NCBI GenBank assembly: GCA_037133555.1
Contig: JBAXNW010000002.1
Span: 49,637-113,636, forward strand
Direction: 5' to 3'
DNA: 64,000 nt
From: Bacteroidota bacterium
Lineage (GTDB): Bacteria; Bacteroidota; Bacteroidia; Bacteroidales; JACABE01
In this document: in pieces, positions 11,826-55,600 of the stretch
Layout of the letters: each line of letters opens with the position of its first letter
Position numbering within the stretch: the stretch's first letter is position 1
Program-made: the position numbers and the translations under genes
The notes under the pieces: generated by a model
The model's input: the letters and a program-made list of their open reading frames with translations, nothing else
What the model was told of the DNA's origin: nothing
Database searches by the model: none

Positions 11826-11840
11826 TCTATACAGCTATAT

Positions 11841-12050
11841 ATGGATGAAAAATGGGTACTTATATACACTTCTTCACAACTATATAAAATTGAATTGATA
11901 AGTGGCATGTTGTTTGAAAATGATATTGAATCTTTTATCATTAACAAACAAGATTCAGCTTACTTAATAGGTGAAATAGAATTACATGTCAATATTGATG
12001 ATATTTTAAAAGCGAAACAACTCATTTCAAAATTTAATCAGAGTGAATAA
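11841..12050 (+). CDS. small DUF2007-like protein
   Basis: 69-aa ORF tightly coupled to cdsA (8-nt overlap). Resembles the small putative signal-transducing-protein fold family. Weak call. Confidence 0.35.
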   Translation: MDEKWVLIYTSSQLYKIELISGMLFENDIESFIINKQDSAYLIGEIELHVNIDDILKAKQLISKFNQSE

Positions 12051-12873
12051 TTTTATCACAAGAACTATTACAGGTTCTCTTTTTGTAATCTTAATAATAG
12101 CTTCTATCCTACTCAGCCATTATTTCTTTTCAATTGTTTTTTTACTATTCTCAATACTGGGAATCGCTGAATTTTATTCAATTACTGCTAAAGAGGAAAT
12201 TAAACCACAGCGTTTAATAGGAATTATTATTTCAGTTTTGCTCTTTTGTATTTCAGCTATTGTCTCGATAAGCAATGCGCATTTCAAATTACTCTTTTTA
12301 ATCATCCCCTTATTTTTCATTCCTTTTATAATAGAACTTTTTAGAAATAAACCCAATTCAATTTCTAATATTGCTACAACTTTGCTGGGTATCTTTTATG
12401 TAGTTCTTCCTTTGTCTTTGCTCAATTTTATTCCTAATATATCTTTTGAATCGGGAATTTACAACAAGGGTATTTTATTGGGCTATTTTATATTAATCTG
12501 GACCAATGATACATTTGCTTATTTAGTAGGAGTTAAAATTGGAAAAACCAGATTATTTGAAAGAATTTCACCAAAAAAATCATGGGAAGGAAGTATCGGA
12601 GGTTTAATTTTTAGTATGTTGGCTGCCTATTTACTTTCACTTTTCTTTTCTGAATTAACAGGTATTATGTGGATAGGTATGGCTATCATTATTGTCGTAT
12701 CAGGTACTTTGGGCGATTTAACTGAATCTATGTTCAAAAGAAATTTAAACATCAAAGATTCAGGAACTATTTTACCAGGACACGGAGGTATACTAGACAG
12801 ATTAGACGCCTTGTTTATCTCTGCGCCTTTTGTGTTCTTTTATTTGACATTCATTAATTACTTAGCCCATTAG
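12043..12873 (+). CDS. cdsA: phosphatidate cytidylyltransferase
   Basis: Polytopic membrane protein with the CDS signature SMFKRNLNIKDSGTILPGHGGILDRLD. Confidence 0.9.
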   Translation: MNNFITRTITGSLFVILIIASILLSHYFFSIVFLLFSILGIAEFYSITAKEEIKPQRLIGIIISVLLFCISAIVSISNAHFKLLFLIIPLFFIPFIIELFRNKPNSISNIATTLLGIFYVVLPLSLLNFIPNISFESGIYNKGILLGYFILIWTNDTFAYLVGVKIGKTRLFERISPKKSWEGSIGGLIFSMLAAYLLSLFFSELTGIMWIGMAIIIVVSGTLGDLTESMFKRNLNIKDSGTILPGHGGILDRLDALFISAPFVFFYLTFINYLAH

Positions 12874-13724: not shown

Positions 13725-13757
13725 AAAAAAAGCTGCCTCGAAAGAAGCAGCTTTTTA
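13725..13757. terminator. bidirectional intrinsic terminator between psd and GDH-1
   Basis: AAAAAA-AGCTGCCTC-GAAA-GAAGCAGCT-TTTTT: a hairpin flanked by an A-run and a T-run between convergent genes. Confidence 0.65.
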
Positions 13758-13776: not shown

Positions 13777-15114
13777 TTAAAGAATACCTTGATCTAACAT
13801 TGCATTGGCTACTTTTAAGAAACCTGCAATATTTGCACCTTTTACATAATTTACATATCCGTCAGCTTGTTTTCCGTGTTTTACGCAAGCAGCATGGATA
13901 TTTACCATAATGCTATGTAATTTTTCGTCAACTTCCTGAGCAGACCAATTGTATTTTAATGAATTCTGTGACATTTCTAAACCTGAAGTAGCAACACCAC
14001 CTGCGTTAACTGCTTTTCCAGGTCCGAATAACACTTTATTTTCCAAGAAAACTTCAACAGCTTCAGGAGTTGAAGGCATATTAGCACCTTCAGCAACGCA
14101 GATACAACCGTTTTTAACAAGAATTAAAGCATCTTCTTTGCTTACTTCGTTTTGAGTAGCACAAGGTAAAGCTACATCACATTTAACTTCCCATGGACGT
14201 TTTCCTTGGTGGAATTGTGCGTTAGGAAATTCATAAGAATATGGCTTAACGATATCTTGGTTAGAAGCTCTTAATTCAAGTAAATAATCAATTTTAGCTC
14301 CTGAAATACCATCTGGATCATAAATATAACCATCAGGTCCAGAAATAGTAACAACTTTACCACCTAATTCAGTAACCTTAATGGCTGCACCCCAGCATAC
14401 ATTACCAAAACCTGATAAACATACTGTTTTGCCTTTGAATGATTCACCTTTTGTGGCTAACATTTCTTTTGCAAAATATACTGCACCAAAACCAGTAGCT
14501 TCTGGACGAACCAAACTTCCACCCCAATTGATACCTTTACCTGTAAGAACACCAACGTGTTCCTTGGTTAATTTTTTATACATACCAAACATGAAACCGA
14601 TTTCACGTCCACCAACACCGATATCACCAGCAGGAACATCCGTTTCTGGTCCTATCATTCTCCATAATTCTAACATGAATGATTGGCAAAAACGCATTAC
14701 TTCATTGTTTGATTTTCCTTTAGGATCAAAATTTGAACCACCTTTTCCACCACCCATAGGCAAAGTAGTCAAACTATTTTTAAAAATTTGTTCGAAACCT
14801 AAAAATTTCAAAATACTTAAGTTAACACTAGGGTGAAAACGCAAACCACCTTTGTAAGGTCCTATTGCATTGTTGAACTGTACTCTGTAACCTAAGTTAA
14901 CCTGTACTTTACCATTATCATCAACCCAAGGCACTTTAAATGCTAAAAGTCTGTCTGGTTCAACCAATCTGTCGATAATACCAGCTGCTTCGAATTGTGG
15001 ATTTTCGTTGACCACTTCTTCTAATGATTCTAAAACTTCGCGAACTGCTTGTAGATATTCTACTTCACCTGGGTGTTTTTTCTCCAGGTCGTTCATTATT
15101 TTCTCTAAGTTCAT
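13777..15114 (-). CDS. glutamate dehydrogenase, paralogue 1 (dinucleotide fingerprint GFGNVCWG / SGPDG)
   Basis: Hexameric GDH signature [10 protein letters not shown] with the catalytic Lys region. 445 aa. Roughly two-thirds identical by eye to the second copy. Confidence 0.95.
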   Translation of the reverse strand: MNLEKIMNDLEKKHPGEVEYLQAVREVLESLEEVVNENPQFEAAGIIDRLVEPDRLLAFKVPWVDDNGKVQVNLGYRVQFNNAIGPYKGGLRFHPSVNLSILKFLGFEQIFKNSLTTLPMGGGKGGSNFDPKGKSNNEVMRFCQSFMLELWRMIGPETDVPAGDIGVGGREIGFMFGMYKKLTKEHVGVLTGKGINWGGSLVRPEATGFGAVYFAKEMLATKGESFKGKTVCLSGFGNVCWGAAIKVTELGGKVVTISGPDGYIYDPDGISGAKIDYLLELRASNQDIVKPYSYEFPNAQFHQGKRPWEVKCDVALPCATQNEVSKEDALILVKNGCICVAEGANMPSTPEAVEVFLENKVLFGPGKAVNAGGVATSGLEMSQNSLKYNWSAQEVDEKLHSIMVNIHAACVKHGKQADGYVNYVKGANIAGFLKVANAMLDQGIL

Positions 15115-15191: not shown

Positions 15192-15199
15192 CAAAATTA
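15192..15199 (-). promoter_or_regulatory. candidate -7 box TAATTTTG for GDH-1
   Basis: CAAAATTA on the plus strand is TAATTTTG on the minus strand. It lies 78 nt upstream of ATG 15114. Confidence 0.4.
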
Positions 15200-15261
15200 C
15201 ATTTAATTAATTGACTAAAAAAAAAATTACCCAATTATTTTTCAAAATTATGAAAAATAAT

Positions 15262-15278
15262 TTAAGTGAAACACTTAA
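15262..15278. promoter_or_regulatory. palindromic operator-like site TTAAGTG-AAA-CACTTAA
   Basis: Perfect 7+3+7 inverted repeat, about 63-79 nt upstream of the candidate GDH-1 -7 box. Same core as the two palindromes at 22356-22407. Confidence 0.55.
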
Positions 15279-15299: not shown

Positions 15300-18287
15300 T
15301 TATTCATTTGAGTCAGAAAATGATTGTTTTAGAACAATCCCTTTATTTTTCTTTCCATCAATTTTAATGATGAGTGGATTTGAAAATCTCAAATGACGGA
15401 TAAATTCATCTTCATAATAGGGTTCAATACTTGATAAATAATCAATATCGTAAAATCCATCATTGATAAATGGATTAATCGTAAAATATCCGACCCTGAA
15501 AGAAGTAAGATTTTGAAAAAAGTGTGTTCCCTGGCTAGGATCTATTCTGTAATTTTTAAGTCCGGATTCAACAATAAGTCTAGCTGCAGAAATTTGCGGC
15601 CATTTTACAGGTATTCCTAGCCAAGGGTCACTGGAACCCCATCGACCAGGTCCAACCAAAATATATTGTTTTTCTTCTTTCAGGAACAGATCGTTCAACT
15701 TTCCAATATCTTTGACAATTGCTTCACTTTTGGATGGATCAAATGACTCGGGCTTTACATATACAATATCGTAAACGTCCTCAATAATCCCATTTCCTAA
15801 TGCAGAATTGCAAATAATCAAAGCCTTTTCTTTATCAATCTCGCTTAAATCTTCTTTTAAGGTTTGATCATTGTCAACAATTGGACGAATTTGCAATAAA
15901 TTAAATATTTTAGGTTGATTATCCGGCACATCCAAATCAACGGCAAATTCAATTTCAACAGGTTTATTCATTTCCCGTTGTGCTACTTCTAGTATATCTT
16001 TTAAAATTTTAGCAAGAGGAAATGAATTATGATTTAATATGTTAGAAAAAGTTATTAGTTTTTTCCCATCATGGTATATCCCATCTCTTAACATATTGCT
16101 TTCAAAATCAAAAGTTGAAGCAATCATTTTAATTGAATTATCCTTTTCTGCCTCATTTATTGAAAGTTTCAATATATTAACACCATCATCAACGCAGGGT
16201 TTAAAACTTTCTTTGTTCATATCCAAAGCATAAAAGTGTCTTTGAGTTTCTCTCAAAGCCATATCAACTGATGATAATTGAAGTATTTTTTGAGGATATT
16301 GGGGCGAAAACCTTAATGTATTTCCTCCGTCAACAATATATTTACCTAAACCTAAAGCTATGTTTACAATTCCATCTTCAGGTTTTTCGGGTGCAATGGG
16401 GTAAAAATTAATAGAACGAGCCACACCTGAAATAGTTGGATAAAATCGATTTCCATAAAGTTGTCCACAAACTTCTTGCAAAACAATACCCATTTTCTCT
16501 TCATCAATTACATTCTTTGTTGCTGTCATATAAGCTTTACTATCCTTAAAATACACAGATGCATACACGCTTTTTATTGCAATGCTTAATTTCTCAATCA
16601 TTGTACGCTCATCATGTAAATTAGGTATCATATACGTAGAATAAATTCCTGCAAACGGCTGATAATGTGAATCTTCTAACAGACTTGATGAACGTATCGC
16701 TATAGGTTTTTTGACAACTGAAATAAATGCATATAAGTCTTCGTGAATACGGAAAGGCAAACGAGCACTGACAAAACTTTGAAGAATATCATCGTTACTT
16801 TTTTCGGATAAAGCAATTTTAAATAAATTATTGTCTTCCATAAACTCATCAAAAACATCTGTACCTAATACTACGGTTCTGGGAATGGTTACAATTACAT
16901 CATCATATTTATCCACCATTCTGTTTCGTTTTACCAGGGTATCTATAAAAGCCAAGCCACGAGCTTTTCCACCAATAGAACCACTTCCTATACGAGTAAA
17001 AATAAGATATTCATCAAATTTATCACGATAAAAATCAGCAATTACTCCCCTACCCTTATTACTTCGGTATCGAGCTATTGCATCAAAAATATAACGTCTT
17101 ATTTCGTCTAAATCATTAAAATCTTCAAATCTTAGAATCTTAAGCATTTCTGCAATTGAAAAAAAGGCCCTGGCATTTAACCATTTAGAAAAATGATTAT
17201 TGCTTAAATGATAATAAAACGAATCATCAGGAATATCAAAAATTTTATCTTGTAGATTTTTCAAGTCACTCACTCTTAAAACTTCAACTTTTGTTTCAGG
17301 GTTTTTAAAAACGAAATCACCGAATGAAAAATTATTTAAAATAAAATCTTTTAATTCATGTGAATAAGTTTTTGAATTTTTATCTAAAAACCCGACCTTA
17401 AGCTCTTTAGCTTTAAAGCTATTTTCAGAATCAGATGATTGGAGCAAAAAAGGCAAATCTTTGTCATCATTTCTTACTAATTCACAAAAACGGATTCCAG
17501 CGTTTTTGTTCATTACACCATAGGTTTTAAAACTTATATCTGAAATAACACCTAACAAATTGTTTTTGTATTTTTCGTAGAAATCGATGGCTTGTTCATA
17601 ATTGGTTGCTAATAAAATCTTAGGCCGCCCACGCATACGTAACATTTTTTGATGTTCGTTCAGCCCTTCAGTCATAAATTTTAGCGATTGTTTAAAAATC
17701 AATTTATATAAATTAGGCAAATAACTTGAATACAACCTTACAGAATCTTCAACCAATAATAAACATTGAACGCCAACTTCATGTGAATCAAATTCAACAT
17801 TCATATCATCTTCTATCAGCTTTATTATAGCCAACATAATATCAGCATTGCCCAACCAGCTAAAAACGTAATCAATAGATGTTGTATCACCAGAATCTAA
17901 TTTAAGTGAAACTTCTCGTGAAAAAGGTGTGAGAACAACAATAGGTTTATATGGATATTTTATTTTTATTTGTTTTGCGAAATCAAAAACATCCACATCA
18001 CCTAAATCTAACATAGTAATTATCAAATCAATCTGATCTTCAATTAATACTTTAAATGCTTGTTCTGCTGAAGAGACCTGAATAAAATGCGGTGGATACC
18101 TTAAGTTTAAAGATACATATTCATTAAAAATTTGTTCCTCAATTCTTCCATCTCCTTCTAAAACAAATGCATCATATTTGCTACATATTAACAATACTTT
18201 GTTGATGCGTTTAGTCATTAAATTGTCAAAAGGAGTCTCTGTAAAATAAAACTTTTTGATATCCTTTACTTTCTTTTCTTTCTGCAT
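15300..18287 (-). CDS. degenerate receiver + receiver + PEP/pyruvate-binding (PPDK_N-type ATP-grasp) domain protein with conserved C-terminal domain
   Basis: REC2 has LLVEDS, acceptor D250 (LLGVISD), QSS and K303. REC1 has Met92 at the acceptor position. The ATP-grasp region has GSGSIGGKARGLAFI and AIRSSSLLEDS..QPFAGI. The C-terminus has GPGRWGSSDPWLGIPVKW and GTHFF. Confidence 0.8.
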   Translation of the reverse strand: MQKEKKVKDIKKFYFTETPFDNLMTKRINKVLLICSKYDAFVLEGDGRIEEQIFNEYVSLNLRYPPHFIQVSSAEQAFKVLIEDQIDLIITMLDLGDVDVFDFAKQIKIKYPYKPIVVLTPFSREVSLKLDSGDTTSIDYVFSWLGNADIMLAIIKLIEDDMNVEFDSHEVGVQCLLLVEDSVRLYSSYLPNLYKLIFKQSLKFMTEGLNEHQKMLRMRGRPKILLATNYEQAIDFYEKYKNNLLGVISDISFKTYGVMNKNAGIRFCELVRNDDKDLPFLLQSSDSENSFKAKELKVGFLDKNSKTYSHELKDFILNNFSFGDFVFKNPETKVEVLRVSDLKNLQDKIFDIPDDSFYYHLSNNHFSKWLNARAFFSIAEMLKILRFEDFNDLDEIRRYIFDAIARYRSNKGRGVIADFYRDKFDEYLIFTRIGSGSIGGKARGLAFIDTLVKRNRMVDKYDDVIVTIPRTVVLGTDVFDEFMEDNNLFKIALSEKSNDDILQSFVSARLPFRIHEDLYAFISVVKKPIAIRSSSLLEDSHYQPFAGIYSTYMIPNLHDERTMIEKLSIAIKSVYASVYFKDSKAYMTATKNVIDEEKMGIVLQEVCGQLYGNRFYPTISGVARSINFYPIAPEKPEDGIVNIALGLGKYIVDGGNTLRFSPQYPQKILQLSSVDMALRETQRHFYALDMNKESFKPCVDDGVNILKLSINEAEKDNSIKMIASTFDFESNMLRDGIYHDGKKLITFSNILNHNSFPLAKILKDILEVAQREMNKPVEIEFAVDLDVPDNQPKIFNLLQIRPIVDNDQTLKEDLSEIDKEKALIICNSALGNGIIEDVYDIVYVKPESFDPSKSEAIVKDIGKLNDLFLKEEKQYILVGPGRWGSSDPWLGIPVKWPQISAARLIVESGLKNYRIDPSQGTHFFQNLTSFRVGYFTINPFINDGFYDIDYLSSIEPYYEDEFIRHLRFSNPLIIKIDGKKNKGIVLKQSFSDSNE

Positions 18288-18461: not shown

Positions 18462-21400
18462 TTACTGATCACTGATTTTAGTAGTTATAACAGCCATACG
18501 TTTTTTGCCATCCATTTTCACATCAAGCGGTTCTTTAAATCTTATATGTCTAAAAAAAATGGTCTGATTAATTATCTTCTCATTTTTTAATTTATCCCAG
18601 TTGATATAACTTTCATTCAATTCCTGTTGTACCGAAAAATAGCCAACATTCAATGAAGTAACATTATGAAAGAAATGCGAACCTGAAGAAGCATCCAACG
18701 GAAAATCCTCCAAACTGGTTTCTACAATAACTTTAGCATTGGAAATCTGGGTCCAGTTTACCGGAATTCCAATCCATTTATCCCGGGTCCCCCATCGTCC
18801 GGGGCCAATTAAAATATATTTCCTGTTTTCTTTAATCATTAATAAATTAAGCTTTTCAATTTCTAAAGCCATTTCATCGGTTTTTGATTTATCGAAAATA
18901 CTAATATCTACATAAATTACATCGGTAATGTCATTTATCAGTCCATTTCCCATTCCTTTATCAGAAAACAAAATTACATCGTTTTTGTTAATTTTCGATT
19001 CATCAATAGAATAATCTTCTGCATTTCCTATTAATGGTTTGATTTGCAGAAGATAAAAAGATGCTCTACCCTTTTCATCTTTTTTTAAATCGATTGCAAA
19101 TTCAATTTCAACGGGAGATCCCAAAGCTTCTTTCACTACATCCAATACCAATTCAATTGTTTCTGAAAGCGGTATATAATTATATTTCAATATATTTGCA
19201 AAATTAATAATCCTAGGACCCGGAAAACTCAAACCGGGTACAATTCTATTATTATCAATATCGTAAACAGAAGCACAATGTCTTAAAGTTCCATGTTTTT
19301 CAGCAACATCAATATCTAATTTAATTAAACCAGCCTCCTCACCTTCCAATAAATTTAGAGGATGCTGTTTTAAATCAATGGCATAAAAATTAACTTGCGA
19401 ACCCTTGTATTGATCTTTTGGTGAATTAATTTCAATGCCTGCATATTTAGGAGCAAAACGATAAGCTTTTTCTCCTTCAACAACATAAGTTCCCAAACCA
19501 ACTGCAATTACAGCAAAACCTTCTTCGGGTTTCATATGCGAAAAAGGATAAAAGTTATAGGATTGTGCAACACCACTAAGATGAGGATAATACACTTCAT
19601 CGTATATGTTTCCAACAACTTCTTGTATAACAATAGCCATTTTTTCTTCTTCAATTTTATAATTAATCGCTTCAACATACCCACGTGCAATTTTTGAAAA
19701 AACAGAAGCGTAAACTAATTTAATAGCTTCTACTACCTGAAGCAGTCGTTCTTCCAAGTCAGGATGATTATTAGGAATTAAATAGGTTTCAAAAATTCCA
19801 GCAAAAGGTTGCATCATAGAATCTTCAAACAAACCTGATGAGCGAATTGCCAATGGTTTAACAAGTTTTTTCAATAACAGCCTTAGCTTTCTCAGCAAGC
19901 TATCAGTTAATTTTGATTCAAGAAAGGTTTTACGAATTATTGTATAATCTCTTTCTGAATTTACAAAATCATATAATTTATTTCTTTCAATGAAATAATC
20001 AAATTCATCGGTGCCAATTATGGATGTAATCGGAGTTCTAATATTAATATCAGGAAGCATTTGCGAAAAATCATAATTATAAATTAAAGTATTAATAAAT
20101 GCCAAACCCCTACCCTTTCCTCCCAAAGAGCCGGAAGCCATTGAGACAATATTACTTTCATCAATAACATCTGTTTCTTCAAAACTAATTACTTTCCCTT
20201 TATTTTTCTCATTCCGATGGTTTTGAATTGCATTTAGCAAGTAATTTCTTAATTCCCCTGCATTTTTAAAATCAGTAGTCTTTAATGGGTTAATCCTTTT
20301 CGCGATAGAAATTTCGCCCCTTGCCATCAACCACAATGAAAAATGATTACGCTTTCCATGATAAATTAATGATTCGTCAGGTATTGTTTTTAAATGTTTT
20401 TCAAATTCTTTCAGTGAACTTGCAATTGCAATATCTCTACCCGATGCATCTTTATAAATAAAGTTTCCAAAACCCAAATAATGACTGATGAAACTTTTAA
20501 TATCCTGAGATAAAGTATCTGAATTCTTGTCAATAAAAGTTACTTTTAGTTCGTATGCCAATTTTGCATTTTCCGGATCAGATGATTGAATAATAGTAGG
20601 CAAATCTTTGGCATTGCTTCTAATATATTTTACTAAATCATAGCCTGCATTTTCGTCCAACAAATTGTTTCTGAAGAACTTCATATCCGTAATTAAACAC
20701 AATAAATAATCCCGGTATTTATGAAAAATATCAATGGCTTCTTCATATGATTTTACCAAAAGAATTTTAGGTCTTGCTCTTAATCTTAAAACCTTGTACA
20801 ACTCATCATTGCTCACATCTTCAATTAATTGCTTGGTTTGTTCTAACACACTAGAATATAACATTGGCAGATAACGAGAATAATATTTTGCAGAATCCTC
20901 CACTAATAAAATTACATTTACCAAACCTATTTTTGTATCATTTTCTACATTTACCTTATCCTCAAGATATTTTACCATTGCAAAGAAAACGCGTGAATCT
21001 CCATTCCACACAAATATTTTATCGACAAGTTTAACAACTTCAATGTCTTTTTCGTAAAGAGCTATATCGCTATTATTGTTTAACAACATAAAAATAGGAA
21101 TATAGGGAAAATTGCATTTAATACTTTTACTTATCTCAATAGGTACATTTTTATCAACACCTAGCATTATGATTACGAAATCATAATGCTTTTCATTTAA
21201 CTCAGATAATGCTTCCTCATAAGACGAAACGCCTGTAACCCTGGGTATTGAAGTAAGATTTAGCTGATAATATTCGCCCAAAATATGTTCCGAAAACCTA
21301 CCTTCTTTCTCAATGTTATAAGCATCATATAGATTTGCAATTAAAAGGATTTCATTTACTTTGAATGGCATTAAATCGTGAAAAATATCTCTGTCGTAGT

Positions 21401-22286
21401 TTTGTTTGTTTAAGAATTTATGTAATAATTGTCGGCTCGGAATTTTTTGATTATCATCAATGGTTTCAACATACTCTTTCTCGGAATTTTTTAAAATAGA
21501 TTTTGCTTTTAAACTATTCAGATAATTAACAATTATTGTAGAAAGATTATCAATTAAATGTCGTTCCTCTTTTAAGAAAGGGCCTTCGTCAATGTCATTA
21601 AAACTCTTTAAATAAAATACTTCGATAGATCCTTTCAGTTGATCAATGGTCTCGAAATTTTGCTTTTGCATCCAAGGTGTTTCAACAAAATCAGGTGTTT
21701 TAAACTCATTTTTATTAAAAACAACTCTTGCTACTGTAAATTCTGGATATTGCCATGCTTTAGGCAACAACATACATATTTGTTGCAAGGTTTCTTCAAT
21801 GGATTTTCCTTCTTTTAGAATTTTTGTTGTCTGATTAATTGCAGCTAATTCTTTTAAACGTTCTTTATTCTCAAAGATTAATTTCTCAAGTTTATCTCCT
21901 GTTGATGTTTCTGGAATGGCAGCAGCTTGGTGATAGTTCTTTTCCTCAGTTATCTTCCTTTTATCGCTGAATGCATTAAAGTCAAAGCTTATTCGTTTAA
22001 GTTTATAAAGTGCAGCACCCTCTTTTTCAAGAACAGGAGTAAATACTCCGTTAATAAATAAATCGTTACTGTCTTTTTTAACAAAATGCATTTCAACTTG
22101 CTGCACGCTTCCATTGCGCAATTGCTCCCACATTAATCTGAATTTATCAGATTTATAGACTGAGTTTTCAAGTAAAAAACTTAAATGATTCCCCTTTATT
22201 TCATTTAAACTATAGCCAAGTAAATTACATAGGTCAGCATTCACTTTTTCGATGATGCCATCAAGATTAAATTCGATTAATGCCAT
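18462..22286 (-). CDS. PAS + GAF-like + degenerate receiver + receiver + PPDK_N-type ATP-grasp domain protein (paralogue of 15300-18287)
   Basis: N-terminal PAS core (FNLDGIIEKVNADLCNLLGYSLNEIKGNH). GAF-like block (LPKAWQYPEFTVARVVF...GPFLKEERHLI). Pseudo-REC with Met374, and REC with LLVEDS and D534. GSLGGKGRGLAFI, AIRSSGLFEDS..QPFAGI, GPGRWGTRDKWIGIPVNW and GSHFF. Confidence 0.8.
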   Translation of the reverse strand: MALIEFNLDGIIEKVNADLCNLLGYSLNEIKGNHLSFLLENSVYKSDKFRLMWEQLRNGSVQQVEMHFVKKDSNDLFINGVFTPVLEKEGAALYKLKRISFDFNAFSDKRKITEEKNYHQAAAIPETSTGDKLEKLIFENKERLKELAAINQTTKILKEGKSIEETLQQICMLLPKAWQYPEFTVARVVFNKNEFKTPDFVETPWMQKQNFETIDQLKGSIEVFYLKSFNDIDEGPFLKEERHLIDNLSTIIVNYLNSLKAKSILKNSEKEYVETIDDNQKIPSRQLLHKFLNKQNYDRDIFHDLMPFKVNEILLIANLYDAYNIEKEGRFSEHILGEYYQLNLTSIPRVTGVSSYEEALSELNEKHYDFVIIMLGVDKNVPIEISKSIKCNFPYIPIFMLLNNNSDIALYEKDIEVVKLVDKIFVWNGDSRVFFAMVKYLEDKVNVENDTKIGLVNVILLVEDSAKYYSRYLPMLYSSVLEQTKQLIEDVSNDELYKVLRLRARPKILLVKSYEEAIDIFHKYRDYLLCLITDMKFFRNNLLDENAGYDLVKYIRSNAKDLPTIIQSSDPENAKLAYELKVTFIDKNSDTLSQDIKSFISHYLGFGNFIYKDASGRDIAIASSLKEFEKHLKTIPDESLIYHGKRNHFSLWLMARGEISIAKRINPLKTTDFKNAGELRNYLLNAIQNHRNEKNKGKVISFEETDVIDESNIVSMASGSLGGKGRGLAFINTLIYNYDFSQMLPDINIRTPITSIIGTDEFDYFIERNKLYDFVNSERDYTIIRKTFLESKLTDSLLRKLRLLLKKLVKPLAIRSSGLFEDSMMQPFAGIFETYLIPNNHPDLEERLLQVVEAIKLVYASVFSKIARGYVEAINYKIEEEKMAIVIQEVVGNIYDEVYYPHLSGVAQSYNFYPFSHMKPEEGFAVIAVGLGTYVVEGEKAYRFAPKYAGIEINSPKDQYKGSQVNFYAIDLKQHPLNLLEGEEAGLIKLDIDVAEKHGTLRHCASVYDIDNNRIVPGLSFPGPRIINFANILKYNYIPLSETIELVLDVVKEALGSPVEIEFAIDLKKDEKGRASFYLLQIKPLIGNAEDYSIDESKINKNDVILFSDKGMGNGLINDITDVIYVDISIFDKSKTDEMALEIEKLNLLMIKENRKYILIGPGRWGTRDKWIGIPVNWTQISNAKVIVETSLEDFPLDASSGSHFFHNVTSLNVGYFSVQQELNESYINWDKLKNEKIINQTIFFRHIRFKEPLDVKMDGKKRMAVITTKISDQ

Positions 22287-22353
22287 AATGAGTATTTTGG
22301 TTTAAAATTAAAACAAAACCAGCTTAATTATTGAGTTTTTTTATATTATATTT

Positions 22354-22361
22354 CAAAATTA
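22354..22361 (-). promoter_or_regulatory. candidate -7 box TAATTTTG for the 1274-aa gene
   Basis: CAAAATTA on the plus strand, 68 nt upstream of ATG 22286. Overlaps the left arm of the 23-bp palindrome. Confidence 0.4.
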
Positions 22362-22378
22362 AGTAAATTACTTAATTT
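22356..22378. promoter_or_regulatory. perfect 23-bp palindrome AAATTAAGTAA-A-TTACTTAATTT (core TTAAGTA-N3-TACTTAA)
   Basis: Base-by-base check gives 11+1+11 perfect dyad symmetry, in the divergent region between the 1274-aa gene and GDH-2. Confidence 0.6.
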
Positions 22379-22388
22379 GATATTTATT

Positions 22389-22407
22389 TTTAAGTATTAT
22401 ACTTAAA
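22389..22407. promoter_or_regulatory. perfect 19-bp palindrome TTTAAGTAT-T-ATACTTAAA (core TTAAGTA-N3-TACTTAA)
   Basis: 9+1+9 perfect dyad. Its centre is 31 bp from the centre of the first palindrome, about three helical turns. Confidence 0.6.
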
Positions 22408-22429
22408 TAAATTTACGATAAACACGTAA

Positions 22430-23875
<1,446 letters not shown>

Positions 23876-24039: not shown

Positions 24040-24867
24040 ATGATTGATTTTCCTAATTGTAAAATAAATTTAGGTTTATATATTGAAAATAAGCGACCTG
24101 ATGGTTTTCATAACATAAAAACAATATTTTATCCTATTGACTTATCCGATGTATTAGAAATTATTGAATCTGATTCTACTGAGTTCTCAATTACAATGAG
24201 TGGGATACCATTAAATACTTCAAACCAATCAAATTTATGTGTTAAAGCTTATGAATTGCTGAAAAATGATTTCAATTTGCCAGCCGTTAAAATGCACTTA
24301 CACAAAAATATACCTCATGGAGCAGGACTTGGTGGTGGTTCTTCTGATGCAGCATTTACTATTAAATTATTAAACAAAACATTCAATCTAAGTTTATCCA
24401 TTTCTCAAATGCATGAATATGCAGCTAAATTAGGTAGCGATTGTCCTTTTTTTATAGAAAACAGAACAGTAATAGCCAATGAGAAAGGGGATATTTTTAA
24501 TCCTATTCAAATTTCATTAGAAAGCTATTATATTCTTATAGTTAAACCTGATGTGTATGTTAGTACACCTGAAGCATACCAATGGATTAAGCCCAGAAAT
24601 GCTCAGGTTGATATTGAAACTATTATAAAAAACCCAATTGAAACATGGAAAGACCTGCTTTTTAACGATTTTGAAAAGAGTGTTTTTAGCAAATATCCAA
24701 TTATCGCTTCAATCAAAGATATTTTTTATAAAAATGGAGCTATTTATGCAGCAATGAGTGGTAGCGGTGCTGCAGTTTTTGGTATATTTTACGACACTCC
24801 TCCCACCCTGCCCTTACCTGATCATTGTTTCGCTTGGGGATATAAAGTTGGAAAAGACAGCATTTAA
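24040..24867 (+). CDS. ispE: 4-(cytidine 5'-diphospho)-2-C-methyl-D-erythritol kinase
   Basis: GHMP kinase motif IPHGAGLGGGSSDAA and the N-terminal CKINLGL pattern. Confidence 0.9.
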   Translation: MIDFPNCKINLGLYIENKRPDGFHNIKTIFYPIDLSDVLEIIESDSTEFSITMSGIPLNTSNQSNLCVKAYELLKNDFNLPAVKMHLHKNIPHGAGLGGGSSDAAFTIKLLNKTFNLSLSISQMHEYAAKLGSDCPFFIENRTVIANEKGDIFNPIQISLESYYILIVKPDVYVSTPEAYQWIKPRNAQVDIETIIKNPIETWKDLLFNDFEKSVFSKYPIIASIKDIFYKNGAIYAAMSGSGAAVFGIFYDTPPTLPLPDHCFAWGYKVGKDSI

Positions 24868-24901: not shown

Positions 24902-26872
24902 TTATTTAAATGCAACTTCAGCGGGAGATGCACTTATAAAATCAAATAATTTAAGAATATCTTGCCCTGATATACTGAATACAAAATCAGATTTACCATT
25001 TGGAAGCATAGGATAATAGGCAAAATTTAACTGAAATGTTTGAAAAACCAGGTTGTCATTCCTAATTCTCAAACCTGCTCCTACACCCAAAAAATATTTT
25101 TCATTGAGTATAAAGTGTTGGCTTAAACCTAAAACACCTACATCCCAAAACCCATACAATGCTACTTTAAAACCATAAAAATTTATAGGTGTAAAAGCCA
25201 CTGTTTCAATCTTAAGTGATAATTTCTGAGTCCCTATCATCAACGGGCTTTGCATTATTCTTTCAGTTTCATCTAAAGAAATAAATTCACCGTCGAAGCG
25301 ATTGATACCAATTACATAGTTTAGATTAAAGAAATTACGAAATTTGTATTTATTGTGATAGTATAAATTACTAAAAGAATTTACCGAAAGCCTGAGTACG
25401 CTTTGTTCTAATTTTAATCCATTTTTATACCCGCCAAAACCAATCTGGGTATACAAATAACCAAATTTGTCAATTATAGTAGCAGTTGAGAACTGCCATC
25501 CATAATAAAACCGATTGCGAAATTCTCTATTTTCGGGACCTGTAGTAAACTCAAGCAAATAACCGTAAGGTATATCTTCTGTAATTCCAAAAGCATAAAT
25601 TAAATTCCCTTTGTAGTAATTGCGCTTTGATAAAGCGATTTTTGTAAGGTACAAATCTGATTGATGATAAATTTTATTCACGCCCGGTCCAACTTCAGGT
25701 CTAATTATAAAATGAGTCCTATAATAACGAGCCGAAAAAATAAGTCTTAAAGCATTTAGCTTGTTTCCTTCTTTACTCAACGAAATTGACCTTCCTAACC
25801 AGACATCAGTTTTCGTAAAGCTTAAGGCTTGGTTGAATAAGTTTTGTTCTGAAGTAATTATTTTAACTTTTTCGTTGTTTCTAGACCATGAGAGTCCACC
25901 TGCATATTTTGATTTAGTTGTCAGGAAACTTCGTTCAATATAAATCCCAAATTTTTCGGTATCGTACATCGATTGATAAAAAACACCAGAATTAATAAAA
26001 CTTTGTTTTATATTATTTAATTTATATTCTCCTTTATAACCATAATGTTGCGAAGAATCTTTATCGTAAAACAGTTTATTGTTTAATTCATTCCCAAAAC
26101 CAATAAAGTTCAAATCGTACAATTCCATACTACCAGCTCTGCTTCCTAAATCAGGTTTTATTCCTATTGAAAACAAATCGCGTGTAACTATTAATAGATC
26201 AACCGAATCTGATTTAACTTTAGTTGCAAATATCTTAGCTTCATAAATAAAAGGGAGGTTTCGTAAAATACGTTCATTTTCAGCCAGCAGGTAAGAATTT
26301 AGTTTTTCCCCTTTCTTTATCAATAAATTACCTTTGATTACTTTTTCAAATGTAACAATGTGAATATCATTCGCTGCTTTGGCCAACCAGGATTCTGATT
26401 GCATAGAAGTATCCACAACGGAAGTGCCGAATGCTTCCAGTCTTTTAATCGTAATATTTCTTATTTTTCTTCCATTGTATGGTTTGTATTCATCTTCACT
26501 TAAAGAAGTTTTATCTTTATTAAATAATGTATCTTTTCTATCATGGGTAATCAATAAATCATAAAGTTCTTTTGTAATAGGGTTTCTAGCTGATTTAGTT
26601 TTTAAAGAATCGTAAAAGAGATTTGTTTCAACACTGGGATCATTTTTTATTTCATATTGAATATTTTTAGGCAAAACAACAATCGTATCTTTATAAGCTG
26701 TAATTGATTTATTTCCAATCACTATCACACTACCCTTGTACAATGCAATGCTATCTGATTTGTTTCTCACTGCATTTTGTTGAGCTTTTAATGAATTTGA
26801 TTTCATTAAAAAACTAAAACATATTATAAGTACAATTAATATTTTATTCAACAATTTCGATTTTAAAATCAT
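24902..26872 (-). CDS. outer-membrane protein of unknown function (possibly Omp85-like barrel)
   Basis: Signal peptide (KILIVLIICFSFLMKSNSLKAQQ). The long C-terminal region is rich in aromatic/Gly beta-strand patterns. Family assignment uncertain; the ORF could start at 26899. Confidence 0.4.
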   Translation of the reverse strand: MILKSKLLNKILIVLIICFSFLMKSNSLKAQQNAVRNKSDSIALYKGSVIVIGNKSITAYKDTIVVLPKNIQYEIKNDPSVETNLFYDSLKTKSARNPITKELYDLLITHDRKDTLFNKDKTSLSEDEYKPYNGRKIRNITIKRLEAFGTSVVDTSMQSESWLAKAANDIHIVTFEKVIKGNLLIKKGEKLNSYLLAENERILRNLPFIYEAKIFATKVKSDSVDLLIVTRDLFSIGIKPDLGSRAGSMELYDLNFIGFGNELNNKLFYDKDSSQHYGYKGEYKLNNIKQSFINSGVFYQSMYDTEKFGIYIERSFLTTKSKYAGGLSWSRNNEKVKIITSEQNLFNQALSFTKTDVWLGRSISLSKEGNKLNALRLIFSARYYRTHFIIRPEVGPGVNKIYHQSDLYLTKIALSKRNYYKGNLIYAFGITEDIPYGYLLEFTTGPENREFRNRFYYGWQFSTATIIDKFGYLYTQIGFGGYKNGLKLEQSVLRLSVNSFSNLYYHNKYKFRNFFNLNYVIGINRFDGEFISLDETERIMQSPLMIGTQKLSLKIETVAFTPINFYGFKVALYGFWDVGVLGLSQHFILNEKYFLGVGAGLRIRNDNLVFQTFQLNFAYYPMLPNGKSDFVFSISGQDILKLFDFISASPAEVAFK

Positions 26873-26936
26873 TTGAGCAAATATAAAAATAGATATCAAT
26901 TAACTTTTCATCCTTCGATTGAGAATCTATTGAGAT

Positions 26937-27663: not shown

Positions 27664-29289
27664 TTATATTTTTTTTACTCTTTTTAATGTTAACAAGTTC
27701 ATTGGGTTAGAACCCAAGCCTTGAATATTATTTTGCACAAAGCGCAATACCTGATCGTAATACAAAACAACAACAGCTGCTTCATTCATAATTATCTGAT
27801 CCATCTGATTATAGTAATTATAACGTAAAGAATCATTAATTTCATTTTGAGCTTTTTTATAAAGTAAATCAAAATGAGGATTGCTGAAATGGGTATAGTT
27901 TGGTCCCATTGGACAGAAATTACCTGAATAAAACAATGACAAATAGTTTTCAGCATCAGGATAATCAGCTATCCACGATCCCCTAAAAAAAGAGACCTTT
28001 GATTTAGCAATCATTTCACGAAGTGTAGCAGGTGGATTGACATCTATCTTTATCTTTAAACCTATTTCAATTAATTGATTTTGAATATATTTACACAAGT
28101 CTAAATAAGAAGCAGTTGTTGACAAAGTAATTTCACCCAGTTTTTCACCATTAGGGAAGCCTGCATCAGCTAATAATTTTCTGGATTTATCCGGTTGATA
28201 ATCGTAGCCTTTAATTTTCGAGGTATCAAAACCTGGCAAACCTTTGGGAATAAAACCATACAATGCAGGAGTCCCAATATTGTTTCTTAAATAGCGCATC
28301 ATTTTCACCCTATCGAAACCGTAATTAATAGCTTGTCTCACTGCTAAATATTTAAGTGGATTGTTTTTAATATCGTTTGGACTATCCATCAAAAATGCAA
28401 GGTATTCGGTATTCAGATAAGGTTGTGAAATCAGTTGAAATTTATTTTCATATTTAGGGTTTAACTTTCCATTTACAGTAAGTAATTCATCTTTGTAACT
28501 GACATCAATACCACTCATAAAATCAATATTTCCTTTTATAAATTCCAGGAATACAGATTGTTTATCAATAATAAAAGTGATAGCAATGGCATCTAAATAG
28601 GGTAATCTATTTAGTTTATCATATTCAAAATAATTCTCATTTTTCACTAAGACCAATTTCACGCCTTCTTTCCAGCGTTTTAACTGAAAAGGACCAGTTC
28701 CGACTGGATTTTTACGAAAGTCTTTCCCGTAAAATTCTATGGCTTCTTTTGGAACAACAGAACAATACTGCATACTTAGCAAACCTAAAAAAGGTGGAAA
28801 TGATTGATTTAAAACAATTTCTAAAACAGAGTCATTTAGGGCCGTGAATGCAAATTTTCCATCTAGTTTTTTAACGTAATTAAAAATCCAGGCACCAGGT
28901 GAGGCTATTTTTTCATCAACAATCCTATTGAAACTATAAACAAAGTCGGAAGCTTTCACATTTCGAGCCTTATCTTTTAAAGCTATATTTTTATGAAAAA
29001 ACACATCTTTTTTAAGGGTAAAAGTATATGTTTTACCATCTTCAGAAATCACCCATTTAGAGGCTATACATGGCTGTATTTTGAGTTGCTCATCCAATTG
29101 CACCAAACCATTATATAATTGGTTACAGGCCCATATATTCGACTGGTCTTTTGTAAAAGCAGGATCAAGAGAAGTAATACCTGCTGATTCGTTGTATCTG
29201 AATACAAATTTACCTTCGTTTTTATAATCAGTCCTAAAACAGGAAGAAAACAATAGAGAACACAGAATAATTAAGTAATATCTTTGCAT
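27664..29289 (-). CDS. ABC transporter substrate-binding protein, family 5 (peptide/nickel type)
   Basis: Lipoprotein-like signal (LLFSSC). The 541-aa length and sequence pattern are typical of OppA/DppA-like SBPs. Confidence 0.75.
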   Translation of the reverse strand: MQRYYLIILCSLLFSSCFRTDYKNEGKFVFRYNESAGITSLDPAFTKDQSNIWACNQLYNGLVQLDEQLKIQPCIASKWVISEDGKTYTFTLKKDVFFHKNIALKDKARNVKASDFVYSFNRIVDEKIASPGAWIFNYVKKLDGKFAFTALNDSVLEIVLNQSFPPFLGLLSMQYCSVVPKEAIEFYGKDFRKNPVGTGPFQLKRWKEGVKLVLVKNENYFEYDKLNRLPYLDAIAITFIIDKQSVFLEFIKGNIDFMSGIDVSYKDELLTVNGKLNPKYENKFQLISQPYLNTEYLAFLMDSPNDIKNNPLKYLAVRQAINYGFDRVKMMRYLRNNIGTPALYGFIPKGLPGFDTSKIKGYDYQPDKSRKLLADAGFPNGEKLGEITLSTTASYLDLCKYIQNQLIEIGLKIKIDVNPPATLREMIAKSKVSFFRGSWIADYPDAENYLSLFYSGNFCPMGPNYTHFSNPHFDLLYKKAQNEINDSLRYNYYNQMDQIIMNEAAVVVLYYDQVLRFVQNNIQGLGSNPMNLLTLKRVKKI

Positions 29290-29337
29290 AGGTTTATAAT
29301 AGAATTCAAAATTACGTAATTTTAATTTTAATTTGAA

Positions 29338-41899: not shown

Positions 41900-42077
41900 T
41901 TACACGCAAAGATAAAATTTTATTTCAGAATTTCTAAACGATAAAAACACTTTTTTATTTTCAGCTATCACTTATTTCTTATTTCAAATTTACGTTTATA
42001 GCGTAATTGCTTGATAGAGGATTAAAGATTGAGAATGAGAATCGATAGATTGTTCTTAAATTACTGACATTTTATCA

Positions 42078-52669: not shown

Positions 52670-55600
52670 TTATTCTGTTGGTTTTGCTTTTTCCGGTTCT
52701 GGAATTGATTCTTCTCCATTAGCTCCAGCTAAAGCCATTCGCTTAATAAAGTCATTACGCTTACGTTCGGTTGAAAGGTAATATGAATAGGGTGGCAAAC
52801 CATTTTCTGCTTCTAAACGGCGTTTATCAGGTTTTTCTTTGGTTATATAATCATTAAAATCTTTGACTGATGAATAAGCTTGCATCAAATTGTTGCTGTA
52901 GTTGAAGAAATACCATTCCGATTCATCTAACTCAAAATACAAGGTAAAAATATCTCCACTCCTCTTTTTAATAATTTGGAAATATCCTTTAACATATTTA
53001 TTCACTTGCGTTTTCCCAATATTTCCAACTCCGATTTCGCCCATAGAAATAAAAGATTTAGAAATCGAATCGTATCTTAATTTTACATCTGTTAATAGTA
53101 TTGTGTAATCAAGCTTATCAGGAACTTTCCGCAATACACCATACATATTAATTTCATTTACAACTTTCTCAGCATCCTTTTCGCCTAGGATTTCTGTGAA
53201 GGCCTTTTTAATTTTTACATTGGTTGAATTTTCAATCCCATTCAGTGAATTATTGGTATACATGCTTTGTCCCATTAATTTCATTGCATCAGCTTGAAAA
53301 AAGAAATTTAAAGGCATTACAAGGTCAAAAGTTGCTTCATTACTTTTCATATTATTGGTGACATTCCCAAACGAATTCATTTCAACCCGTCCCAGCTTGG
53401 TACCCATATTAATATTCCCTTCACCGGATGTTACACAACTATTGACATCCATCACAAGCAAATTCCCTAAAGTATCCGGATTTAATAATTTATTTTTGGA
53501 AGCAATTCTGTATTCTTTTTTATCTTTAAAATATTGAATAAAACCATTGGCTGAAACCACAGCAGTATCACTATAAAAGCGTTTAGGAGAGGCGAAAGAA
53601 GTATAAATTTGACCTGAGTTTGAATATAAAATTGCAGCAGCCAATCGTCTTCCAGAAATATCTTTAGGGTCGCTATTTATTGGAATCATCACTTCTTTTG
53701 GATTAATTTCAGCATTGAACTTTAACCATGCAAAATTTTCATCTCCACAACTATGATGAATCTTGCTTCCACCTATAAAATTCAGAAACATATTTGCTGA
53801 TTTCAAAACCACATTCCCTGTAAAACTAAAAGCAGGACTTAAAGCAAAATCAGCAGAATCCGTAACAAATCCTGTAGCATAAGTTTGCCTGTTACTATCT
53901 ACAGCTATTTTACTGAAAAAAATCTGGTGTTTACTTTCATTTTCATCTATATAATCATAATTCCCGCTGCCAATGAATGATCTTTTACCATGAATACTAA
54001 CTGATGATTGATAAAAATTATGATATTTTGTGGCTGTATCTGCTAAAATAATAGCATTGGACAAGGGTTGAATTTCGGCCTGACGCAAAATCACGATTTT
54101 ACCTTTATCGGGAGCAATAGCCGCATCAGCAACTCTTATAAGTTTAACATCTTCAGCCGTCAGAATATAATCTTTCATATTAAAAACTGCTCTTGTTGAT
54201 CTGAATCGCAACGAATCCTGAGCTGGATGCGTTGAAACAAAATCTGAACCTGGTAAATCAGCCGTCAAAAGTTCTTTGAGAGATAACAAATCAATGCCTT
54301 CGATACCTGATTTCTTGGTGTTTTTCAGTGCAATTTCGTCCCTATCCATTGACCATTCCAGAAAGTCCATATAACATTGATATCTGTTTATTGGAAAGTT
54401 AACTTTTGAAACCTCACCATTTGATTTAAATTCCCCATTTCGTTTTTTAAAATCAATATGTGATCTGTAATTTTCTGTATTAAAAGCAAGATCCGTTAAA
54501 TCAAAGCTTCTTAAACGAAAATTAGCAGTATCGGCATCAAAAGAAAATTGCTTAAATTGATACATATTAGATTCTATTTCAGCTTTTTCGAAAACCATCT
54601 TTCCTTTTCCAGTTAGGCCTTGAGGTGTTAAAACCAGACTCCCAGCTAAACTAGATTCATGATTATACATGATAAAAGCACTATCCAACTGATTAATAAT
54701 TAATGAATCTTTGTATGGATTCCAATGTTCTTTTACATTGGTTGAAGTCAATTGAGGGTACTCCATTAATGCGGCTTGCTCTTTAATATCAAAACTTTGA
54801 GCAATTGCATTCATTGAATCAGGCAGGAAAATAAAATTATCAGATTTTGAAGTTGAAGTTAAATATTCCAATTTCCCATGTCCTCTAAAACCCTGGTTGC
54901 TTAAATCGATTTTGTTAAAATACTTGCCTTTACCACCATAGATTGCCTGACCTTCAGAAGTTGTCGATTTAATAAATCCTAAAGAATAATCAGGTTGTAC
55001 TTTTAGTGGTTCATTTATTTCGGAAAAAATATCAGCTGATGTAAGGCTACCATTGAAATTGATGCTATCTGTTGGAATCCTAAGCAAATTTTCAATTTTA
55101 AATGGTTTTACCCGATAAAAAAACTTATCTTTTAAATAAACTCCATTTTGAATTGAAGGTTTGTTATAATAAACGTAAGATTCTTCTCTACTCGTAAATA
55201 AAGGGTATTGAGGATAAGATTTAAGTCCGGATTTATTGCTTGGATAATCTACCAACAGATCTCCTTTTAAATTCTCAATTACAGTGTTTAATTTCACAAG
55301 CGGACGTTCTCCTTTATCGTCAGTTGTAAAAGCCAATACTCTTACACTCATTGAATCGATGAGGGGTAAGTTTAATTTAAAGTCATCGTATATAAATGAG
55401 CATCCTTTCGCAAAATAATCGAAGTGACCAGCATGAATCCGCCCTGAAAACAAAAAGTCCCGGTTCTTTTTAACCAAAACTTCCTGATTGCTAGGATAAA
55501 TAAAAACATTTTGAGAATCACTCAGCAATATGATTGGAATTCCTTTTATTTTCAAATCAAAATTCAACAGACTTAAAGAAGCATTCACATCATTATCAAC

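Follow-up and report, generated by a model that had tools for sequence, protein, structure and literature searches.

Conserved palindromes at two glutamate dehydrogenase loci as candidate operators shared with PPDK_N-type sensor genes in a Bacteroidales clade

Introduction

What are two perfect palindromes doing between the divergently transcribed genes for a glutamate dehydrogenase (GDH) and a giant sensor protein, when a third copy of the same dyad stands upstream of a second GDH gene? The question is raised by a 64-kb stretch of contig JBAXNW010000002.1 from a Bacteroidota bacterium (the window, meaning the whole stretch of DNA that was analysed), in which sites 1 and 2 lie between GDH-2 and the gene for a 1274-amino-acid (aa) PAS-REC-DUF5752-PPDK_N protein, and site 3 lies between the gene for a 995-aa REC-DUF5752-PPDK_N paralogue and GDH-1. 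A first-pass annotation had proposed a shared operator for both GDH genes and the giant sensor genes. That proposal is supported here by conserved copies, by constraint on the half-sites and by an absence of covariation between the arms. With a probability that we put at roughly three in four, the pattern of the sequence identifies the sites as lineage-specific operators common to both GDH genes and the PAS-REC-PPDK_N operon, serving one dimeric helix-turn-helix regulator.

Results

Reading of the sequence together with an exhaustive palindrome search located sites 1 and 2 (Table 1), and the coordinates and perfect symmetry first annotated for all three sites match the sequence. The distances given with them were recalculated as correct: sites 1 and 2 are spaced 31 bp from centre to centre, a -7 box that overlaps site 1 is 68 nt from the ATG of the 1274-aa gene (22286), and the two sites fall 122–173 nt upstream of the GDH-2 ATG (22529), inside a divergent region of 242 nt. 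Site 1 is the longest perfect palindrome with a short spacer in the window. Site 3 is placed within the 185-nt gap that separates the stop codon of the 995-aa gene from GDH-1, 22 nt past that stop codon and 156 nt upstream of the GDH-1 ATG. Within each dyad, the half-sites TTAAGT and ACTTAA are centred at a distance of about 11 bp, or about one helical turn, and face the same side of the helix; symmetry with this spacing is that of a generic inverted-repeat operator. A weaker dyad of the divergent region (site 2b), centred 23 bp from site 2, is on its sequence probably an operator as well.

Chance has to be weighed first, as the intergenic DNA is 77% A+T and short A/T palindromes are common in it (the search lists 11 distinct ones, two of them scored at two spacers). 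The pattern TTAAGT-N5-ACTTAA nevertheless has three exact matches in the window, where 100 dinucleotide-preserving shuffles lead one to expect 0.01 ± 0.10 and the 6.4 kb of intergenic DNA (23% G+C) would hold 0.004–0.006, and no fourth exact copy occurs elsewhere in the 64 kb. When one mismatch is allowed, the window yields a single further copy, at 22168–22184 inside the coding sequence of the 1274-aa protein, which is not conserved among orthologues and was rejected as a chance match. A weight matrix built from 23 sites scores sites 1, 2 and 3 at 25.1, 23.8 and 25.9 bits, with the next best match in the window at 13.4 bits and the weak dyad at 12.4. A chance origin is refuted by the shuffles, by conservation with fixed spacing across ten genomes and by the scan of relatives, and its probability is negligible.

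Conservation was followed through a protein-guided search, with one genome per species, that retrieved 80 loci from Bacteroidales and Lentimicrobiaceae-like metagenome-assembled genomes. When up to one mismatch is allowed, matches are confined to the closest relatives, in which the 1274-aa protein is 78–93% identical, and there, with one exception, only in two orthologous intergenic regions. The clade comprises ten genomes, that of the window and those of loci L001, L002, L003, L004, L005, L009, L037, L116 and L355; L116 was added through a scan for the twin-site pattern and L355 through a query with the PAS N-terminus, and both have the same layout. The first-pass annotation was to fall if the palindromes were not conserved in related genomes, and they are kept at the same place in all ten: the twin dyads remain 31–32 bp apart, the centre of site 1 lies 76–81 nt from the ATG of the 1274-aa gene, and the centre of site 2 lies 129–148 nt from that of GDH-2. 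Site 3 is lost in L002 and kept in five of the six relatives whose contig extends that far, namely L001, L005, L009, L037 and L003 (in the last from the alignment only, the contig ending before GDH-1). Where both features are on the contig (L001, L005, L009 and L037) its centre is 145–156 nt upstream of the GDH-1 ATG, and a second copy is present in L005, where the two are 30 bp apart, and in L037.

Constraint within the alignment of the divergent region is concentrated on the half-sites, whose 24 positions are 92% identical; identity is 65% in the spacers and 72% over the remaining intergenic DNA. In a permutation test, only 0.7% of random block sets reached this level of conservation (p = 0.007). 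Location in a promoter region, a position kept across species, and half-sites more constrained than spacer or flanks are the marks of a generic operator. The weak dyad reads TTAAGn-N5-ACGTAA in relatives, with a nearly invariant ACGTAATTT block, and its orthologues score 12–15 bits in L001, L003, L004, L037, L116 and L355. Elsewhere in the window, a perfect 16-bp palindrome, AAAATTACGTAATTTT at 29308–29323, lies 19 nt upstream of an SBP_bac_5 solute-binding gene (27664–29289, minus strand). The core of this palindrome, TTACGTAA, is similar to the ACGTAATTT block of the weak dyad, and a related TTACGT-N5-GCGTAA is found at 41990–42006.

Over the DNA covered by the scans, the sites are also restricted to these promoters. 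Across 1.04 Mb from the loci of the 80 relatives, matrix matches of at least 13 bits are confined to the two GDH-flanking intergenic regions of the close clade, and the loci of the other 73 relatives (~0.93 Mb) contain none. The twin-site scan of 185,579 species genomes recovered the clade at GDH loci only. Applied to a metagenome collection, it returned 112 loci, none of them GDH-linked, in two of which (L329 and L338) both sites reached at least 17 bits; L329 is a large inverted repeat adjoining a MYND-finger gene and was rejected as unrelated. For the single-site pattern, the matches listed from species genomes include random A/T-rich genomes such as Prochlorococcus and Pelagibacter. The confinement of strong matches to two GDH-flanking regions supports the view that one kind of control element serves both GDH genes as well as the operon of the sensor genes.

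Conserved stems with variable loops would also be expected of a hairpin, and the palindromes might act as RNA stem-loops (terminator, stabiliser or processing site) or as REP-like extragenic palindromes; site 3 closely follows a stop codon and is itself followed by a U-rich stretch. The 26 sites aligned for the analysis of arms and covariation point the other way. All 26 carry the G at -4, the C at +4 and the TA at -7/-6, position -2 is R in 24 and position +2 is Y in 24, and the central three bases are A/T at 78 of 78 positions. No covariation between the arms was detected in these sites (observed 0.084, shuffled 0.091; 318 of 500 shuffles at least as high). Positions ±2 are unpaired in 11 of the 26, and arm changes are independent and every one of them uncompensated, which is conservation of sequence rather than of pairing, as in a generic operator. 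As RNA the stems are weak, at -4 to -6.7 kcal/mol; the terminator scan does not call the sites and Rfam gives no match on them at E ≤ 1, so that they resemble neither an intrinsic terminator nor a known structured RNA. Sites 1 and 2, moreover, lie between divergent genes, where a terminator is not needed. Because the arms vary independently, the hairpins are weak and neither Rfam nor the terminator scan returns a match, the sequence pattern is that of DNA recognised sequence-specifically by a protein rather than of a structure.

A positive control for the hairpin explanation came from the same twin-site scan, which also recovered about 15 Bacteroidota loci with multi-copy hairpins GGnTTAAGT-N5-ACTTAAnCC (L085, L086, L099, L101, L103, L108–L111, L114, L115, L118 and L119), in Saprospiraceae, Chitinophagales, Lentimicrobiaceae and Bacteroidales. 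Their TAAGT-N5-ACTTA core, often in pairs 30–40 bp apart, is like that of the GDH sites and speaks for the hairpin explanation, but these elements covary strongly (49 double changes against 17.6 expected; 0 of 500 shuffles) where the GDH-linked sites do not. They have G+C-clamped stems of 9–10 bp with G/C-containing loops, and many occur within a few kilobases, in both orientations, between convergent genes or near tRNAs. None matches Rfam. The multi-copy hairpins appear to be a REP/BIME-like family, distinct in kind from the GDH sites; what the two have in common is the core that the search pattern demanded. The GDH sites, in contrast, are locus-specific and positionally conserved, do not covary and have A/T centres; with three copies in 64 kb, all at GDH loci, they do not behave as a REP/BIME repeat family, and we consider a hairpin or REP-like role for them very unlikely. 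The twin pattern was further seen inside open reading frames (ORFs) of Gracilibacillus, Sutcliffiella and Piscibacillus (L092, L100, L106 and L107), where GTAAGTAAAACACTTAC units recur at 33-bp intervals; such tandem repeats of 11 codons belong to coding sequence and have no relation to the GDH sites.

Recognition by a protein need not mean a classical regulator, as sites that are A/T-rich and phased might be bound by an A/T-preferring nucleoid-associated protein or by a site-specific recombinase, and Bacteroidota use invertible promoters flanked by inverted repeats. The invariant G/C positions and the sharply defined half-site argue for base-specific reading instead. For a recombinase, the 31-bp interval is too short to be an invertible segment, domain scans of the neighbours and small ORFs disclosed no recombinase gene nearby, and the orientation of the region is identical in all genomes aligned. 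A non-classical protein of either kind is accordingly even less probable than a hairpin.

How the dyads are placed relative to the start of transcription depends on which promoter boxes are used, and candidate boxes were judged against the Bacteroidota -7 consensus TAnnTTTG and by their conservation. The probable GDH-2 box, TAACATTG, belongs to a block, TTTTTATAACATTGTAG, that is nearly invariant in 10 aligned sequences, including two that have no dyads; within the box, TA, the A at 22481 and TTG never vary, and variation in one or more sequences is seen at both 22479 and 22480. This box would place sites 2b, 2 and 1 at about -68, -91 and -122. On the sensor-gene side, the consensus box TAATTTTG that overlaps the left arm of site 1 would put the centre of that site at about -18. 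The repressor-like overlap in the first-pass annotation is thus present in the window where it was described, but it is not general to the clade: the final G of the box is kept in five of the ten genomes (the window, L001, L002, L009 and L116) and gone in L003, L004, L005, L037 and L355. A second -7-like box nearer the 1274-aa gene reads TAATTTTA in nine of ten genomes and TACTTTTA in L116, with TAnnTTTA in all ten, and would place sites 1 and 2 at about -68 and -99, respectively. The outer dyads of the divergent region are 56–57 bp from conserved boxes on either side, site 1 from TAATTTTA at 22310 and the weak dyad from TAACATTG at 22477.

A similar choice arises at GDH-1. The distal box, TAATTTTG or TATTTTTG in seven of eight sequences (alignment A2), keeps a fixed distance of 11–12 nt from the dyad and would set the centre of site 3 at about -31, over the -33 region. 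The proximal box is TAATTTTG in seven of the eight sequences of that alignment and TAATTTCG in L008, and would set the same centre at about -83. The choice of box therefore decides whether the dyads are placed for occlusion (about -18 and -31) or upstream (about -68 to -122). An inverted repeat with 10-bp arms, TTATTTTTCA-N6-TGAAAAATAA at 15237–15262 on the minus strand, encloses the distal TAATTTTG and adjoins site 3; its right arm, TGAAAAATAATTG, is conserved in relatives and its left arm only partly.

Table 1. Palindromic sites, candidate promoter boxes and principal genes, in coordinates of the window.
Feature	Coordinates	Strand	Sequence	Remarks
Site 1	22356–22378		AAATTAAGTAA-A-TTACTTAATTT	perfect 11-1-11 palindrome
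Site 1 core	22359–22375		TTAAGT-AAATT-ACTTAA	centre 22367
Site 2	22389–22407		TTTAAGTAT-T-ATACTTAAA	perfect 9-1-9 palindrome
Site 2 core	22390–22406		TTAAGT-ATTAT-ACTTAA	centre 22398
Weak third dyad of divergent region (site 2b)	22413–22429		TTACGA-TAAAC-ACGTAA	centre 22421
Site 3	15262–15278		TTAAGTG-AAA-CACTTAA	perfect 7-3-7 palindrome; centre 15270
Probable GDH-2 -7 box	22477–22484	+	TAACATTG	inside block TTTTTATAACATTGTAG
Consensus -7 box overlapping left arm of site 1	22354–22361	-	TAATTTTG	plus strand reads CAAAATTA
Second -7-like box	22303–22310	-	TAATTTTA	17–24 nt upstream of the 1274-aa gene ATG
Distal GDH-1 -7 box	15244–15251	-	TAATTTTG	starts 11–12 nt downstream of site 3
Proximal GDH-1 -7 box	15192–15199	-	TAATTTTG	
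GDH-1, glutamate dehydrogenase of PRK14030 subfamily	13777–15114	-		64% identical to GDH-2
995-aa REC-DUF5752-PPDK_N paralogue	15300–18287	-		~39% identical to the 1274-aa protein
1274-aa PAS-REC-DUF5752-PPDK_N protein	18462–22286	-		divergent from GDH-2
GDH-2, NADP-specific glutamate dehydrogenase (GdhA type)	22529–23875	+		Pfam ELFV_dehydrog
IspE	24040–24867	+		

The surrounding window has 31% G+C and is Bacteroidota-like in content, encoding GldG for example, and its GDH-2 scores 768 bits against NCBIfam PRK09414 (cut-off 536). Just after GDH-1, at 13727–13756 on the minus strand, is a strong intrinsic terminator with a 13-bp stem, five G-C pairs and a U-tract, on which several weak, sub-threshold Rfam small RNA matches pile up. 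Farther along, an ATG-started ORF at 12616–12873 covers no more of the CTP_transf_1 (CdsA) profile than its last 80 positions, and the crude gene call leaves 790 nt without an ORF upstream of it (region 11826–12873); the truncation could reflect a non-ATG start, a frameshift or a pseudogene. The 665-aa product of 24902–26899 has no match in NCBIfam or Pfam, and the 1515-aa product of 52670–57217 has none in an NCBIfam scan, the only one made for it.

Discussion

We infer that a dimeric helix-turn-helix factor, encoded outside the window, would read the half-site T-A-A-G-T-R on each arm of the dyad. Sites 1 and 2 would accommodate two such dimers at a distance of three helical turns, where cooperative binding as a tetramer or a higher oligomer is most likely, and the same protein would bind once upstream of GDH-1. 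Because one protein would then occupy every site, a single signal, plausibly nitrogen or amino-acid status, would govern the two GDH paralogues and the PAS-REC-PPDK_N / REC-PPDK_N operon alike.

Several observations weigh against this model. Pfam scans of 20 small ORFs across the window found no DNA-binding domain, and none was found in the giant proteins with Pfam or NCBIfam, their unassigned segments showing no obvious helix-turn-helix by eye. The ten species are fairly close, and shared ancestry could inflate the apparent conservation. The 3' untranslated region of the 995-aa gene includes site 3, which may there have a second role as a weak hairpin. Promoter geometry is likewise ambiguous, the box under site 1 keeping its G in half of the genomes and the box 57 bp away being kept in nine of ten.

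This ambiguity bears directly on the sign of regulation. Since a -7 box lies under site 1 and a -33 region under site 3, we lean slightly, and with less than even confidence, toward a repressor that occludes the promoter of the sensor genes and the distal promoter of GDH-1; any effect on GDH-2 would then come from binding upstream, at about -68, -91 and -122. A model in which the dyads are upstream activating sites is nearly as likely. In that case an amino-acid-responsive oligomer, such as an Lrp-like octamer, would wrap the three phased dyads and activate both divergent promoters from about -68 to -122, and GDH-1 from about -83. Such a model accommodates the promoter-like boxes that are conserved in nine or all ten genomes at 56–57 bp from the outer dyads on both sides, and the lack of conservation, in half of the genomes, of the consensus box under site 1. 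These two conserved boxes also deviate from TAnnTTTG, as activator-dependent promoters, we infer, often do. E. coli Lrp offers a precedent, as its activation of gltBDF depends on helical phase and proceeds from sites that are over 150 bp upstream (PMC1784095). The fixed 11–12 nt between site 3 and a conserved consensus TAATTTTG, and the overlap of site 1 with a perfect -7 box, seen in the window as in four of its relatives, are by contrast classic occlusion geometry, and it is these that tip our tentative preference toward repression.

Which family the regulator belongs to can be approached through the shape of the sites, and here the Lrp/AsnC feast/famine proteins fit best, although by analogy this is only a lead. 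Sites of this family are odd-centred dyads of 13–15 bp with an A/T-rich centre and a 5-3-5 pattern, and the E. coli Lrp consensus, YAGHAWATTWTDCTR, has its AG and CT 9 nt apart. The dyads described here, likewise odd-centred and with A/T-only centres, read AAGTR-WWW-YACTT and fit the 5-3-5 pattern, in surrounding DNA that is itself 77% A+T. Sites about three helical turns apart, glutamate and nitrogen targets and the possibility of action from far upstream are further likenesses. Arrays of Lrp-type sites are phased about 30–32 bp apart; here sites 1 and 2 lie 31–32 bp apart in all genomes, and the third dyad is 23 bp from site 2 and out of phase, or 32 bp away in another register. Two further differences are that AG and CT are 7 nt apart here, so that by eye the consensus is not matched, and that no Lrp/AsnC gene is present among the 20 small ORFs scanned in the 64-kb window. 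Glutamine-responsive Sulfolobus Sa-Lrp, for its part, binds the control regions of gdhA, gltB and glnA (PMC3584215).

A NarL-like protein of the NarL/FixJ (GerE-type) family is by analogy another binding partner to consider, again only as a lead. Receiver domains are present in the adjoining giant proteins and hint at a common phosphorelay. Boxes of this family, such as the GacA/UvrY box TGTAAG-N6-CTTACA and the RcsB box, have the TAAG...CTTA arms in common with our sites. The arrangement here is TAAG-N7-CTTA, one base longer, and the sites thus show neither the N6 arms nor the nearby GerE-domain regulator of a NarL/FixJ box. In at least 22 distant relatives, a 219-aa response regulator with REC and a LuxR/GerE-type helix-turn-helix is encoded between GDH-2 and the PPDK_N gene (for example at 5197–5856 of L011 and 2151–2810 of L038, with about 20 other loci). 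This locus-linked protein was rejected as the binder, as it has no homologue in the window or the clade loci and its carriers are without the motif; no shared dyad was found among the loci that encode it. Boxes of the CRP/FNR family, including those of cyanobacterial NtcA (GTA-N8-TAC), and Rex boxes are likewise dyad operators of global metabolic and nitrogen regulators; they are of even length with N6 or N8 spacing, whereas the axis here runs through a base pair and GTA and TAC are 3 nt apart.

Beyond the close clade, the gene pair outlasts the motif. About 50 of the 80 retrieved loci have GDH-2 on the strand opposite to a REC-DUF5752-PPDK_N giant gene and upstream of it, with a gap of at most 500 nt in 34 loci and other DNA, including the NarL-type regulator gene, intervening in the rest; in the close clade a further giant paralogue and a further GDH are present as well. 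This conserved pairing suggests a functional link between REC-DUF5752-PPDK_N sensor enzymes and GDH. Already in L007 and L008 (74–76% identity), and in all more distant relatives, about 70 in number, the pair is kept and the motif is absent. When dyads were enumerated de novo across 27 GDH-2/PPDK_N intergenic regions from more distant relatives, no palindrome common to them emerged. In place of TTAAGT dyads, three of them, from GC-richer relatives, have a Rex/CRP-like box, TTGTGAAAATGTTCACAA, some 45–50 nt upstream of the GDH-2 ATG (position 5844 in L019, 5818 in L025 and 4857 in L028).

A wider reading, doubtful at present, is that the dyads are the DNA end of an undescribed Bacteroidota nitrogen or amino-acid circuit composed of one regulator, two GDH paralogues and two PPDK_N-type (ATP-grasp) sensor enzymes. 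The giant proteins would act post-translationally on GDH or its metabolites, the operator would set transcription, and the control region would have been rewired by lineage, with the dyad here and a Rex-like box or an inserted NarL-type regulator elsewhere. Our literature searches found no described regulator motif for Bacteroidota GDH genes and nothing on DUF5752, and searches with the motif strings returned nothing relevant.

In summary, the kind of element described here is ordinary in itself and its hosts are uncultured Bacteroidales, yet nitrogen regulation in Bacteroidota is poorly understood, and a sharply defined, conserved operator is a handle for identifying a regulator. The putative operator links two GDH paralogues with uncharacterised REC-DUF5752-PPDK_N proteins, and the locus shows cleanly how regulation can turn over while a gene pair is conserved. 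The link between GDH and REC-DUF5752-PPDK_N proteins, together with the turnover of their control region, may prove a more novel story than the operator itself.

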